DNA of 64,000 nucleotides from Cladosporium halotolerans (taxonomy: Eukaryota): the NCBI RefSeq assembly GCF_011745625.1, contig NW_027191468.1, positions 124,001-188,000 on the forward strand. Reading direction: 5' to 3'. A program made the translations under genes and the position numbers. The notes below the pieces were generated by a model. The model saw only the letters and a program-made list of their open reading frames with translations, did not search any database and was not told where the DNA came from. Below, one piece after another: positions 5,744-12,148 of the stretch (the stretch's first letter is position 1; each line of letters opens with the position of its first letter).

Positions 5744-7630
5744 TTACATCATCCCGTCTGGAGCAAGATTTTGGAACGCAGGGATGTCCTGACTCAAGAA
5801 AAAGTTCCAGTCGAAGTCAGTGTTGTTGAGGTAGTCCATGTTCCAGTCCTCGCCACTGCTAGTCGTCAATGGTCCCTGATCCCACATGAGCTGCTGTTGT
5901 TCGTCCACCATGGGCATGATAGGCTGTTGAAGCGATTGCTGCTGCTGTGGTTGCGGCTGCTGCTGAGATTGCTGCATCTGGTTCATCAAGGGCTGCTGCT
6001 GTTGTCCTTGTCCTTGATGCATTGGCTGAGACGGATTGTTTTGCGACTTTGGCAGCAAAGGCTGTAGACCATCGGGTTGCGCGTCGCCGTCTGCAGAATC
6101 GCGTTTCAAGCTCTTTTCCAAAACGTCGGAGTCCTCGTCTTTCTTCTTCTTGGATAACCGGACCAAGAAGCGTGCCGTCTTCAGTGCTTCTTTCATGGCA
6201 ACCGTGTCGAAACGCTTCACGACCATCTCCAAGGTCCGCATGGCCGTCCCGATGTGAGAAAGAGACTCCTTAGTGTCGATTGCAAGAAAGACGCATATGC
6301 ATTGGAAAGGCACATTAGCAACATGCCACCAGGGCATACCCTTGTTTGCTTGATTTCGTGCCGCCTGCAACCCTGCGAGTCCGATGGCAGTAATCCGGTT
6401 GATAGTCTCGGAAGGTAAATTGGGGTTTCCAAGACGCAGACGGCGGTAGGCACAGAGGCCCAAGTTGGCGCGCGAAAGCTCCATACAATCGTGAGGTGCG
6501 TCGTACTGCTCAAGTTGGCGAAGAAAATCTTCCCATTGCGTGGGCTTGTCTGCATTTTCTGGATCAAGGCAGCAGGAGATGCTGTAAAGCTCGATGTATT
6601 CTCGGGTGAAGTCGCCATCACGATGCACTGGAAGCTTGCACGTGATACCTCTTAGGGCCACTCGATTTCGTCCGTACTCGAAGGAAATCCACGTGTTGAG
6701 TAGTCGTGCTATCCAGAATGTGCGCCGTCTGACTTCGGCGTCGTTCATGTGATCGTTGGTGGGTGGGTACATCACGGAGCTGGTGGATTCTTGCTGCAGA
6801 CCACAAGACTCAATGAGGTGCATGGTGACGCTAGATGCCATCCAGCATGCGTGCGGGTGTCCAGTAGAGCGGAGATAGATCGTCCGAAGAATCCATGATT
6901 GTACGTCGTAGATGGTCGGTGGTTGCATCGTGCTGGTACTCTCGAGTGAAAGCTTCGCTGAATCGACAAGTCCAGGTAAGACAGTGTCGATGCTGCCATC
7001 TCCGAATAATGTTCCAAGAGCGGCGACGCCTGCCATGAGATGGTCAGGGCATTGAACGGGCTTTTGCGAAGAGTATCGCAGCATTATCTGCTTCATGAGC
7101 CACTCCTTATCAAGGATGCCATAAAGCGGATGAGCATTGGTGAAATAGAATTTTGCCATTGCTATCATCTGATCCTGCGTGAGAAATCCAGTGATCGGGC
7201 TTGAAATAGGCGCGCTCGTAGATCCGGTGCCCAGATTCCACCCAAAGGTGAACAATTTCGGACCTGCACTCGCATCCAGCCTCATGCCGAGAAGCTTCGT
7301 GAATGCCATGCCAGAGTTGGCCTCCATAGACTGCATTTTCGACACGTCCTCCTGGGTAGTTTGCTCTTCGTGTGGCGGCGTAGCATTTCGAGTGGGACTG
7401 GCTTGAATGATTCCGTTCTCGACGGCGTCCTGCTCAACGAGCTTTGAGCGCTTGCGCGGGTGCTTTTCGAAGTAGCACTTGTACTCAAATTGAGTACACA
7501 TGTTGCAGGGCATGTTCCCGTCGCATCTTCGCTTGCGCAGCCTACATGGCTCGCACGCTTGTTTGGCGCGCTGGCGTTTCTGCGAGGGTGGGCTGTGTTC
7601 GCCACTGCCGTTAGTTGAGCCTTCTGCCAT
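5744..7630 (-). CDS. Zn(II)2Cys6 transcription factor (RDR1-like), intronless
   Basis: ACEPCRLRKRRCDGNMPCNMCTQFEYKC binuclear cluster, fungal TF middle homology region (RRRTFW) and a Q-rich/acidic C-terminus. Start chosen at MAEGS (7630). Confidence 0.9.
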   Translation of the reverse strand: MAEGSTNGSGEHSPPSQKRQRAKQACEPCRLRKRRCDGNMPCNMCTQFEYKCYFEKHPRKRSKLVEQDAVENGIIQASPTRNATPPHEEQTTQEDVSKMQSMEANSGMAFTKLLGMRLDASAGPKLFTFGWNLGTGSTSAPISSPITGFLTQDQMIAMAKFYFTNAHPLYGILDKEWLMKQIMLRYSSQKPVQCPDHLMAGVAALGTLFGDGSIDTVLPGLVDSAKLSLESTSTMQPPTIYDVQSWILRTIYLRSTGHPHACWMASSVTMHLIESCGLQQESTSSVMYPPTNDHMNDAEVRRRTFWIARLLNTWISFEYGRNRVALRGITCKLPVHRDGDFTREYIELYSISCCLDPENADKPTQWEDFLRQLEQYDAPHDCMELSRANLGLCAYRRLRLGNPNLPSETINRITAIGLAGLQAARNQANKGMPWWHVANVPFQCICVFLAIDTKESLSHIGTAMRTLEMVVKRFDTVAMKEALKTARFLVRLSKKKKDEDSDVLEKSLKRDSADGDAQPDGLQPLLPKSQNNPSQPMHQGQGQQQQPLMNQMQQSQQQPQPQQQQSLQQPIMPMVDEQQQLMWDQGPLTTSSGEDWNMDYLNNTDFDWNFFLSQDIPAFQNLAPDGMM

Positions 7631-8744
7631 TGTTGCAGTTGTTTTCCGATTGGCTATCGGCCCAAAAGCATAGCCATTCAGCCAGATGATGTACTGCGAT
7701 GTGAGATGAAGGAAGACAGTCAAATTGCCAGGGATTGGTTGGACGAGACTCGCAGGCCGAGCGAGCCGAGTCAGCCTGCTGCAACGTCCGCCGCCGATTG
7801 CCATGCCGGAGTGTGGGGAGCAGCCAATGACATGCAACGCCAGCCATGTTTCACGACCGGGATGCACGAGCTTAGCCTTCGAGCTTTTCGTGTCAGAGTC
7901 AAGCCTCGACGAGCTGGATAAGGTACTTTTCGAATTGCAATCATCTTCCATTGATAGCCAAAAATCGCAAAGGGAGGCAAAGGTGGAGTTCCTGGAGAAA
8001 GGCATTCGATTTGTACCGAGGAACTCGAATTGTGATCGTCTTCATTGATCATATCCAGTACACCCTGTTAGCAAGATATATCGTGACAATCCAAGACGGT
8101 AGGTAGGACTTCACACAGGCCTTCGTTTCTTCGAAACGATTTACGTTAGCGAGGGAGTGTTCCACGGTAGAACGAATGGCGTCGACAGTAGTTCCAGAGA
8201 CATTTGCAATCAAGCACATGAGCCTTTCGATCGCTACCCGTGAAATCCCCCTCACAATGACATGTAGATACAGCTGTTGTTTCACACGGGGCTCAAAATG
8301 CCTATATGCTTGCGATCTTGCTATTCGCAGAAGTCATCATTCGAAGTGCCGCAGCACTAAATTTCACGTGTCGGTCAGCTAGCTCGCCGTGAGCAACCCA
8401 TATCGGCGTAGGAGTCATAAGACGATAGTTGTCAAAAAACGGAATCTGGCTCATGGTGGAGAGCAGTGTCTCAGAGAGCTGAGATGATAATGACCAGACG
8501 GTCTACAGCTGACCGGCTGAGGTGGTGACAAAAATGATAGAACGGCAGGCAACTTGTTTTCATGATGGCGTCGCGGACTCCCTAATGTACACTCAAACCC
8601 ATGTACAGTCCGGCAGGAGCATGCTGCAGGCCAGGCCGTTATGTCATGCGTGCATCCTCGCCGAGACGCCAAAAGAGACCCACTAGATCACCCGAGATCT
8701 GTCCAGGTTTCAACGATTCAACAGCAAGCGCGCTTCGAGCTTTT

Positions 8745-9554
8745 TTACTCGACGTCGTTCTTGCTCTCGAAGTTCTCGCCCTCGACCAGCTCGGGTATCT
8801 CATCATCGTCGTCGTCCTTCTTCTCACCCTCAGCACCCTTCTGGAGGCTCTGGTAGCTCTCGGCGAGCTTGCGGAGCGAAGCGAGAGAGTCGGGGCCGAG
8901 CTGGTTAAGGATGCCCGGGACGAGCTCGGTGAGCTCCTTGTCCTCACCGTGGCCGTAGAGGGCGAAGGTGTTGGAGGGGACAGCGGCGTGGACTGAGAGG
9001 TGTTAGTGGGGTTCGAGGGCCGGTATTGTGCGGTAGGTTCGGCATACCCTTAGGGGCGGAGAAGTGGATGACGTTGCCGTCAGACTTGAACATGTTGACC
9101 TCCTCAATCTGAGTGATGGGCTGGACGTTCATCTTCTTGAGGGTGGCCTGGAGCTTCTGGTCGTCGGCGCCAGAGGACCTGTGCACCTTCTTCTGGACAC
9201 GTCTGGGAGTACCCTTGCCGCTGTTCCTCGAGCATTAGCCTGTGTTCATATGCGCATTGCTGTTCCCGTTCCTGCTTCTGGCATTGCCATAGCGCTCCTT
9301 TCCTGCCAAGATCTAGTTCCAATCTCACATGCCCAAGTGTTCCTAGCTCTTCATTTACGTTTCTTCCACTTCCAAGCTCCCAACATTCGCCTCGGAGGTA
9401 CCAGAAATTCGCTAATAGTCTCACTTACCCTGTGGCATTGTCAGCATTGCGCCTCGGCCGATTTCGCAGATTTTCGCAGCTCTGCAGGCGCAGTGTGGGA
9501 GCACTTACCAGTGCGGACGGCATTCTGCATGCGGGCCAGCTTCTCGGTGTCCAT
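8745..9554 (-). CDS. EGD1: Nascent polypeptide-associated complex beta subunit (exons 9554-9509, 9429, 9220-9048, 8992-8745)
   Basis: [23 protein letters not shown]...[30 protein letters not shown]...[23 protein letters not shown] is the NAC-beta signature. Frame requires a 1-nt exon (see findings). Confidence 0.95.
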
Positions 9555-9937
9555 GTTGTCGGCGATGTGAAGATCTGCAACAATGAGTTGCAGCGACGGG
9601 ATATGAGGTTGGAGTGGATGCGAGGGTGTCTGTAGTGGTCGTCTCGTTCGCTAGGGCGGCAACTTCATCGACACACTCAGAAGGCCCGCACGCCGGCTGC
9701 GACGCTGCTCGTCGAATGTGCGCGACCACCGAAGCGGCTAGCTCGGCTGCTCCCGTGGTGTGTGACGCTATGGCCACATCGCGAAGTCTTGGCTTTGGTA
9801 GAGGAGATCAACATGCGTGTTACCTTGTGGGTTGAAATCGATGGTTATCATTGCTATTGTTATAAGAAAAGGTAATTGATACGCATCGTGGTTCAAACTT
9901 CAAAGCCAGACTTTATCATTCCGCGATGCTGCCACCA

Positions 9938-12148
9938 TCAAAATGAAGATGCCATCATGCTGGGATCAAGTAACCAGTCAAGGCCAGGGAAATCGAACTC
10001 CATCGCACCAATGCTTGCATCTACTTCGCCGTCATTGAAAGAGACCAGTGGCGGCGCAGAGCTGTTGCCATGCTCGTCTTCGCCGGCCCATATTGAACGC
10101 AGCGTCCTGATCGTCGAGGCTACATGCGTCCACCAGTGATCGTCGTGCTTCTCGGCATCAGAGAAGTGTTGTGTACTTGTCGCAGCTGGTATTTTTGAGA
10201 TGAAACTGGCGAGACGATCAAGTGTCGGGTATAAGGCAATGATCTCAGCAACGTCAGCCTTCTTCCATCCTGGCTCATCAACAAGCGATATTGCAGACAG
10301 CAACCCTGCGGCATGTCGCATCTGCATGAGTGTGGCGATTGCGATGCCGTTCATTTCTGGGACTGGAATGCTGAAGAAAGCGTCGAACCATTGTCGTGCC
10401 GATCGGACGCAGGCGTACAAGAAACGTGTGCGCTGGAAGGCGGCTTGATGAGGCTTCGTAGGATCGCCACACAGTGCAAGTTCGCAGATGACCATTTCAG
10501 CGGCATGAAACTGGAGCTGGACCGTGGCTAGATCGTAATCAGTAGTATTCAATGCCGTGCTTGTCAGGGGACCAGCTTACCATCTTGCGAAGGTGTATGT
10601 GGCATCGCCGACTTGAACTGGTCAAGTTGGCTAAGCATCTCAAAGGCTATGAGACCCGGTGGGGGATAAAGACTTGGGTTGGATGTAAGATGGGCATCGC
10701 CACTCGCCAAACTCGCGCATCTATCAGCGACGAGCTGCATCTTCACTTGTGCAACAAGGAGTTCGTCAAGCGGGCTCTCAAGTTGCCTTTCGATCGTCGT
10801 CAAGCATTCCTGCATGTGGGCCGTCCAGCGCAATGAATCTGCTCGCTTCAGGGTAGACGAAAGCCTGCACAAAGTCAGCATTACTATGTCAGGCAAACAG
10901 TACAACACCCGGCCGAGATCATCAATCCACGAAGCCACAGCTCAGGCTTCTTGATCACATCTCCACATCTAATGAAAAGGCAACTCACACGAAGCTCAAT
11001 AACCAAGTCCCGAGAACTGCTCGTCGCTCTTCCATGGTATGCGCTGGTCGAGGAGGAGGCCTCAGATGAGGCGGAGGAATGCAAGCAAGTTGTGCAGGTT
11101 CGCTGGCCACCGGCTTGTTCAGGCCCAGGTCGAACACTTGCGCGACCGCAAGCTGCGTGAAAAGGGTGATCGTTGATTTCATCATTCTTGGATGCTTGCC
11201 TTGAAAGTGCGCCCTTGCAATGGAGTCAGCCTGAGATCAGCGGCATCCTTTTCAACGACTCCAGCCTCCTGTTTAGTTTTGTCCATGGGTTTGTATTGGT
11301 AGCTATGTGAGACCGAGTCACAGGCGAGGCAAGTGCTTGCTTACAAGGCTTGCGTGGAGAACTTGGCTTCGCTTAGCTGGCTTACCATTCGATGTAGCAG
11401 AGGAGCCCAAGAAGTAAGTCAATCGAGAATCCATTCTTCGCAGTAGTTTCGATAGATAGCGTCTCCTGAACACAGGAGAGCCGCCCACGCTGTTTCGACG
11501 TCTGCTTCGACGTCACAGCCATAACGCATTGCCACAACAATGGTCTTTGGCTTCGCAACTCTTGTGCAGTCGCCGGGAAGCTCAAGAAAGGAAAGAATTT
11601 CCAGTTGCATTGCTTGAACCTTGCAAGGCTTTCCTCGGCCTCGTCGGGGTGGATATCATTGCACTGGAAAGACCCACGTCAATCAATGCATCCGAGTGCG
11701 GAAGTATATTGACAGCAAGACCAACCAATTTTGAGGGAGAGGAGGCTCTACAATCACTCGCGGATGGCCCTGCATCTTGCTCGGGGGCCTTAAGATAGGC
11801 AACTAATTGATCGAGCTTTCGCTCGACTCGGGTGATGTCTTCCGATTTATTCTTTTCAACTCGAGATGGACGAACACCCTCTGACCTGAGTCGCCTCTTG
11901 CTTGTGGAGGGTTGGCAGGGTTTGTCCAAACGATTGCAGCTGCAAGATCAGCGTTCGTCATTTCCACCTCGTCATTGTTGTGATCATCCAACGGCGCGGG
12001 CGGAATTCATGGGGTCGGGACGGGATTGGGCGATGACTTACCGTTCGCAGCAGCCTGGACGGCCTTGCACCCTCATAGGAACGCATTTGATCTTTGCAAG
12101 AGCACAAGCTTGACATGCAAGGCCATATGGGGCCGACGACTCCTGCAT
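9938..12148 (-). CDS. Zn(II)2Cys6 transcription factor, 6 exons (12148-12042, 11939-11726, 11663-11386, 11213-10989, 10864-10581, 10527-9938)
   Basis: The spliced N-terminus ACQACALAKIKC...CERCNRLDKPC forms the Cys6 cluster; FFPF...LRSQRPLLWQCVMAV, DLGLNKP and EERRAVLG motifs follow. All five GT-AG introns keep frame. Confidence 0.85.

Follow-up and report, generated by a model that had tools for sequence, protein, structure and literature searches.

A single-nucleotide exon in the NAC-beta gene of Cladosporium halotolerans and its conservation among Pezizomycotina

The NAC-beta gene of Cladosporium halotolerans, which encodes the beta subunit of the nascent-polypeptide-associated complex (EGD1/BTF3 family), carries an unusual second exon. 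The gene lies on the minus strand of the window, i.e., the whole stretch of 64,000 nucleotides that was analysed, and encodes 155 residues in four exons. With high confidence, the second exon consists of the single G at 9429, placed between two ordinary U2-type GT-AG introns that both fall within one glycine codon. The mRNA junction, the correctness of the underlying DNA and the conservation of the internal signals (branch .. YAG/G/GTRNG, where slashes mark exon boundaries) are demonstrated. The layout of the gene is as follows, with contigs taken from the sequencing runs X7, X8 and X5 described below.

9555..9687, minus strand: 5' untranslated leader of the NAC-beta mRNA; the RNA contigs end at 9660 (X8), 9683 (X5) and 9687 (X7)
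9509..9554, minus strand: coding part of exon 1, 15 residues plus G 9509 as the first base of the Gly codon; RNA contigs are unbroken from 9508/9509 upward
9430..9508, minus strand: intron 1, 79 nt, phase 1; leaves no trace in the spliced RNA contigs of three runs
9429..9429, minus strand: single-nucleotide exon (very probable), G, the middle base of Gly codon 16 (G-G-C)
9221..9428, minus strand: intron 2, 208 nt, phase 2; missing from the mRNA contigs
9048..9220, minus strand: exon 3, C plus 11 residues...HFSAPK plus G; start of the NAC domain
8993..9047, minus strand: intron 3, 55 nt, phase 1 (GTATGC .. CACTAAC .. CAG); the joint from 8992 to 9048 is present in all three RNA runs
8745..8992, minus strand: coding part of exon 4, TC plus HAAVPSNTF...ESKNDVE, with the stop codon TAA at 8747-8745

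The family assignment is based on the NAC domain PF01849, found in the exon 3 translation with an E value of 2.4e-15 (Pfam), and on the 86-89% identity of the exon 3 product to named NAC-beta proteins of Dothideomycetes and Aspergillus. Exon 1 opens with the ATG at 9554-9552, and its last full codon, ACT (9512-9510), is followed by G 9509. Exon 3 opens with C 9220, then GGC AAG GGT ACT CCC (G K G T P). The 3' untranslated region reaches about 8545, as the RNA contigs extend 143-157 letters beyond 8700. Intron 1 has the donor GTAAGT (9508-9503), a branch-like GCTGAC (9445-9440) whose A at 9441 lies 11 nt before the AG, and the acceptor CCACAG (9435-9430). In intron 2, the donor is again GTAAGT (9428-9423), a branch-like GGCTAAT follows (CTAAT at 9238-9234, A at 9235), and the acceptor is AACAG (9225-9221).

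The one-base exon was proposed from a problem of reading frame. If the outer donor is joined straight to the outer acceptor, the result is ACT G/C GGC, which is one base short and out of frame, because, of the three bases of the glycine codon, exon 1 supplies one and exon 3 only the third. The 288-base gap between the two contains GCTGAC, CCACAG, the lone G 9429 and GTAAGT (9445-9423). The original prediction had read these elements as a second set of splice signals enclosing an exon of one base, and its coordinates for the splice sites proved correct at every site on the minus strand. It was also right that the other nearby AG (9228-9227) does not mend the frame; its use adds 6 nt and leaves the wrong frame unchanged. 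In shuffles of the 288-nt piece, the pentamer AGGGT arises in 36%, and the fuller pattern (branch motif, YAG, G, GTRNG) in 0.6%. Because of this chance level, the window sequence by itself is suggestive, and it is the RNA contigs together with the conservation that make the case solid.

A search for sequencing runs gave 24 runs, four of which (X7, X8, X5 and X3) were compared with the locus. X7 is RNA-Seq cDNA on record, while X8 and X5 are RNA by the tool's guess only. The runs X6 and X9-X14 were kept outside the RNA count; they hold 0.54-0.55 of the words, as spliced RNA would. The RNA evidence consists of assembled contigs, in which presence and the main form are visible and minor isoforms, strand and order are hidden. 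In each of the three RNA runs, which come from three studies, one contig spans the NAC-beta gene. The joint from 9220 to 9508 skips 287 bases in X7, X8 and X5, with one ambiguous letter, whereas 288 would be lost in a plain GT..AG excision. The mRNA thus reads ACT GGC GGC AAG (T-G-G-K), and the mature message equals the direct join plus exactly one base. The junction sequence is ACTGGCGGCAAG, also given as CGCACTGGCGGCAAG; this is the junction that had been predicted from the DNA, and the RNA contigs of all three runs match it.

The sequence of the message fits three positions equally well. G 9508, G 9429 and G 9221 would each yield an identical mRNA, so that the message alone cannot choose between them, and the kept G was identified by comparison with other genomes. 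This ambiguity also leaves room for a single non-canonical intron removed in one step, either TA..AG (9507-9221) or GT..CA (9508-9222), with the extra G taken from the start of the supposed donor or the end of the supposed acceptor, for which the internal AG-G-GT would be irrelevant; the aligner itself sets the joint at 9220/9508 with one ambiguous letter. TA..AG and GT..CA are not known to be used by either spliceosome. The conservation described below bears on this alternative as well.

A frame that is off by one base is the classic sign of an indel error, and a base lost at 9509 or 9220 during sequencing or assembly would turn the locus into a real gene with one ordinary intron. The independent run X3, in which 8700-9700 is covered unspliced in five contigs, speaks against such a loss. 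It differs from the window at five bases (9246, 9302, 9417, 9418 and 9586) and by one inserted A behind 9021, its sole indel; all of the differences lie outside the splice signals, with neither a gain nor a loss of bases at 9509, 9429 or 9220. Since X3 is free of indels at the splice sites, an assembly error was rejected. The same 5-nt direct join recurs in 41 other distinct genomic sequences from many assemblies, and the probability left to a lost base is negligible.

For the comparison with other genomes, metagenome contigs were scanned with an alignment of nine NAC-beta proteins. This gave 80 loci, or 81 with the window. The layout G/GT..YAG/G/GT..YAG/N-GGN was found in 52 of the 81, all genomic. 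Another 25 have no intron at the glycine codon; 18 of these are cDNA-like and seven are genomic with the later intron still present. The remainder comprises one locus with a single phase-1 intron only (L018), two that are cut inside the gap (L015 and L045) and one divergent cDNA-like copy without the KGTPRR motif (L037). The 52 layout-bearing loci represent 42 distinct sequences in 25 groups, and the intervening sequences have no blastn similarity between groups. Nevertheless, the lone G between YAG and GT is invariant in all 42 distinct genomic orthologs. At the level of groups, none of the 25 departs from the internal YAG, the G, the GT or the G at +5. An A at +3 is shared by 24 of 25, and across the 25 groups the internal AG follows a YTRAY branch motif. 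The counterparts of intron 1 (53-305 nt) and intron 2 (66-302 nt) are both present in every group. The original prediction had pointed to CAG-G-GTRAGT as the pattern to look for in orthologs; the form recovered in the 42 distinct genomic sequences is the slightly wider YAG/G/GTRNG.

These signals were compared with chance expectation by shuffling (2000 shuffles per group). AGGGT was observed in all 25 groups against 3.7 expected. The branch motif followed by YAG/G/GTRNG was observed in 25 of 25 groups against 0.06 expected, for a pattern that was chosen after the data had been seen. Intron 3 of the same loci served as a negative control, and AGGGT occurred in only one of its 37 distinct copies. 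As the groups have a common ancestry, the counts speak for retention under selection and not for independent origins. On this comparison of sequences, the internal splice signals are conserved beyond chance and under selection. A single non-canonical intron gives no reason for the conservation of internal signals within introns that are otherwise unalignable, nor for their near absence from intron 3, and is thus very unlikely. The need for a one-nucleotide exon, as originally claimed, is borne out by both lines of evidence, namely the skip of 287 instead of 288 bases in the RNA contigs and the internal signals in every group.

The cDNA-like contigs lead to the same junction. In all 18, the VR-I/T codon and KGTPRR are separated by six bases (GGN GGN), never by five. 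One of them, L005, reads GGTGGC; the genomic loci L021-L026, with which it shares 96-98% identity, would give G+TGGC, only 5 nt, by direct join.

The base usually found after an acceptor is G. Among the 25 group representatives, the exon base after intron 2, in third position of the glycine codon, is T in nine, C in eight and A in eight, and never G. The absence of G at this position may merely reflect codon usage. The divergent copy L037 (positions 1-700) is a NAC-beta-like cDNA contig (ARTGGKGTPRQKQRRNVNRGG...) in whose first 120 bases scrambled pieces of its coding region recur; it probably represents a paralogue affected by an assembly artefact.

To name the 25 group representatives, script-built exon 3+4 proteins were compared with named proteins (blastp). 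Summed tblastn pieces were too noisy for naming loci because the public models read through introns. The NAC-beta protein is very conserved and the labels are those of the nearest named protein, so that the class labels are approximate. With this reading, the layout-bearing groups fall into the following classes.

Lecanoromycetes: nearest named proteins from Parmeliaceae at 95-97% (L027, L057) and Pleopsidium at 99% (L063)
Eurotiomycetes: Penicillium at 95% (L035), Thermoascus at 96% (L036) and Knufia at 93-96% (L043, L052, L071)
Dothideomycetes: Pyrenophora at 97% (L051) and relatives of Teratosphaeriaceae
Leotiomycetes: Monilinia at 94% (L041)
Pezizomycetes: Terfezia at 96% (L049)
Sordariomycetes: 92-93% (L046), with an exon 3 that is 98% identical to that of Gaeumannomyces

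Judged from this distribution, the one-base-exon layout would have been present at or near the root of Pezizomycotina, and at least in the common ancestor of the sampled classes. The seven genomic loci without an intron at the glycine codon (L040, L069, L073-L076 and L079) share the later intron position after APK. Their best named protein match is only 86% identical, and their N-terminus reads ...LQAQAAAVRIGG.

The unusual exon has left its mark on public gene models. The correct junction, R-I/T-G-G-KGTPRR, is present in only 17 of 149 named NCBI models, 6 of 78 in the NAC-beta protein list and 11 of 71 in the Sordariomycetes list; 17 additional named models without the KGTPRR motif were excluded from the 149. 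It had been anticipated that gene predictors would mis-annotate this gene, and these counts agree. Forty-three named models read R-I/T-G-x-G-KGTPRR, where x is I, T, D, E, N, S or H, and ten have a single G at the junction. The others have long insertions or an altered N-terminus. The G-x-G models are as expected from a predictor that mends the frame by splicing at the first donor's +5/+6 GT (GTAT, GTAC, GTGA etc.). Among the unnamed sequences, G-x-G and the single G are both absent, and G-G is found in 43 of 67. The usual wrong repair of NAC-beta models is thus the addition of one residue (G-x-G) or the replacement of the N-terminus, and the gene could serve annotation pipelines as a test case for the detection of one-base exons.

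The frequency of G-x-G among named models raises the question of whether the cell itself might mend the frame in this way, by splicing from the +5/+6 GT of the first donor. This would add four bases and one extra residue (T-G-N-G-K in the window), and the window does have a GT at 9504-9503. The RNA contigs of the three runs, however, join 9508 to 9220 and not 9505 to 9220, and G-x-G is found in none of the unnamed proteins, which are largely transcript-derived, and in none of the 18 cDNA-like contigs. Given the contig joints at 9508/9220, the +5 donor was rejected as the main form in the window, and its use as the explanation of the frame is highly improbable.

The very probable single-G exon leads to a simple model of how the transcript is processed. 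The signal sets of introns 1 and 2 are complete, each with its own donor, branch site and acceptor, and lie one base apart. Each intron would be recognised separately, by intron definition, a mode that stwintron work has established for filamentous ascomycetes, according to the passages available from that study (PMC5587772). Removal would take place in succession, because a spliceosome completing intron 1 at its acceptor and a U1 snRNP bound to the intron 2 donor would overlap on a few bases. Either order of removal should leave the signals of the remaining intron intact. The process would resemble recursive splicing with one base kept, and the inclusion of G 9429 appears to be constitutive.

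Recursive splicing is known from the ratchet points, or zero-nucleotide exons, of Drosophila and vertebrates, in which an acceptor abuts a donor and the first splice sets up the second. Such sites contribute no base to the mRNA and break up introns of great length. As in NAC-beta, the first splice places a donor beside the upstream exon; unlike ratchet points, NAC-beta retains one base and has short introns. A zero-nucleotide recursive site was therefore rejected for this gene, as one G stands between AG and GT and is kept in the mRNA.

The stwintrons of Pezizomycotina offer a further comparison. In the passages available from Fekete et al. 2017 (PMC5587772), they share with NAC-beta two consecutive U2 reactions, abutting introns and intron definition, and the intron positions are likewise one base apart. 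A stwintron, however, has its inner intron lodged within the donor or acceptor of the outer intron, and no base between them is left, whereas both NAC-beta introns are complete and one base is kept. There is no split outer donor, because the base after the first acceptor (G 9430) is G 9429 and not T, and no split outer acceptor, because the base before the second donor is G and not A. A stwintron of the [D1,2], [D2,3] or [A2,3] type was rejected, since no donor or acceptor is interrupted. The original prediction had set the locus apart from the D1,2 and A2,3 geometries, rightly so by the definitions in those passages (PMC5587772).

Traces of intermediates were sought in the contigs. Among the compared runs of the window organism, no contig lacked just one of introns 1 and 2. 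In X7 and X8 there is zero cover within both introns, a lack of cover that is itself no evidence. X5 holds a separate 151-nt contig wholly inside intron 2 (9244-9394), at a depth of 9.9 against 129 for the mRNA, and leaves intron 1 uncovered. This contig touches neither end of intron 2, so that no splicing order can be read from it; it could be lingering intron-2 RNA or a lariat. No Rfam family was found within 9244-9394, and a scan of 9150-9600 on both strands for an intronic RNA gene gave no matches at E up to 1. In the metagenome set, L018 (160-270) has a 96-nt GT..AG intron exactly at the position of intron 1, followed by ...CAG/GC GGA AAG, and no later intron. Its protein matches Colletotrichum models at 99% identity, and each of these five models has an aberrant junction. 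L018 is either partly spliced RNA from which intron 2 has gone first or a species in which intron 2 has been lost. The original prediction had taken the two steps to be ordered; as hints on the order of removal, the intron-2 contig of X5 and the locus L018 are weak and opposed, and neither settles it.

Exons of one base have been described before. In Arabidopsis thaliana, APC11 has a constitutive one-base exon (A) between two GT-AG introns (Guo & Liu 2015, PMC4674806). The passages available from that paper show several parallels with NAC-beta: GT-AG introns on both sides, a mis-annotated database model, and authors who likewise propose intron definition with removal of the introns one after another (PMC4674806). 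The differences are also clear. The APC11 exon base is A instead of G, and the exon is not conserved, as both rice paralogs have no introns (PMC4674806), whereas the NAC-beta exon is kept across at least six fungal classes. The APC11 exon was proven by mutagenesis (PMC4674806), whereas the NAC-beta exon is based on RNA contigs and conservation.

The second example is fungal. CYP621A of Fusarium has an AG/G/GT one-nucleotide exon with 20-24 orthologs, confirmed by public RNA reads, and its authors present it, in the passages available, as the second such case overall and the first from fungi (Nelson & Syed 2026, PMC12940212). In CYP621A and NAC-beta alike, the core is AG/G/GT, the lone base stands in the middle of a glycine codon within a conserved motif, and a phase-1 boundary meets a phase-2 boundary (PMC12940212). 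CYP621A, however, is described there as a rarely expressed P450 of unknown function in one genus (PMC12940212), whereas NAC-beta is a highly conserved housekeeping gene in which the exon is far older. A long-read annotation of the basidiomycete Coprinopsis cinerea, moreover, counts 13 one-base exons in 13 genes; its available passages give the count without gene, conservation or mechanism (PMC12230235). One-base exons are thus not unique, and the earlier statement that they are very rare needs to be tempered by this annotation (PMC12230235).

With its presence confirmed by RNA, the NAC-beta exon is remarkable for its age, its housekeeping host gene and the scale of its mis-annotation; that one-base exons exist as a very small class was already known. 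Among nuclear genes, NAC-beta would be the third for which a one-base exon has been described, and the first in which such an exon is found in a universally expressed housekeeping gene and kept over a subphylum rather than a genus or species. In the library searched, no literature was found that connects NAC or BTF3 with micro-exons or stwintrons, and no further nuclear one-base exons were found under other wordings; papers beyond that library may describe some. In Aspergillus, Fusarium, Trichoderma, Pyricularia and Colletotrichum the gene models are aberrant, which suggests that such moulds carry the layout. If Aspergillus, Neurospora and the like do so, they would offer a natural system, in tractable moulds, for the handling of a one-base exon by the spliceosome.

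A role for the exon as a regulatory switch, which the original prediction had added, is a separate matter and would be compatible with a single G exon between two ordinary introns. Skipping of the G would shift the frame, silence the message and so tune NAC-beta output. The skipped product would have 45 residues, and its stop codon would lie about 80 nt before the last exon junction, which makes the message a plausible target of nonsense-mediated decay, and the layout has been retained although losing either intron would not harm the protein. On the other side, no skipped form (288-base skip) was found in the three RNA runs or the 18 cDNA-like contigs, in which minor forms would be hidden, and the retention of 5'-proximal introns in highly expressed genes requires no switch role. 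A regulated switch is on balance unlikely. A wider proposal takes the NAC-beta exon to be older and more widely kept than any other known single-nucleotide exon, derived from the ancestor of Pezizomycotina and selected for forcing a two-step, recursive-like path. Failure of this path, through skipping, frameshift and decay, might then tie the amount of this ribosome-associated chaperone to the condition of the splicing machinery. As a whole, this proposal is speculative and seems doubtful.

Some further observations concern the introns and the surroundings of the gene. In an alignment of the window with three close relatives (L012, L013 and L050), intron 1 is clearly better conserved than intron 2, where the similarity is confined to the ends. 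The stretch TGCGAAAT is common to intron 1 of the window (9460-9490) and of all three relatives. The leader of the mRNA contains an upstream ORF of five codons on the minus strand (ATG 9668 .. TAG 9651), which lies within the X7 and X5 contigs. The X8 contig begins at 9660 with a loose end that resembles a cDNA-synthesis oligo, so that some NAC-beta transcripts may start downstream of the upstream ORF. Upstream of NAC-beta, a 212-codon ORF at 9941-10576 has no Pfam match. On the other side, the neighbouring ORF at 5747-8041 on the minus strand (765 codons) carries a Zn(2)-Cys(6) binuclear cluster (PF00172) and a fungal-specific transcription factor domain (PF04082).
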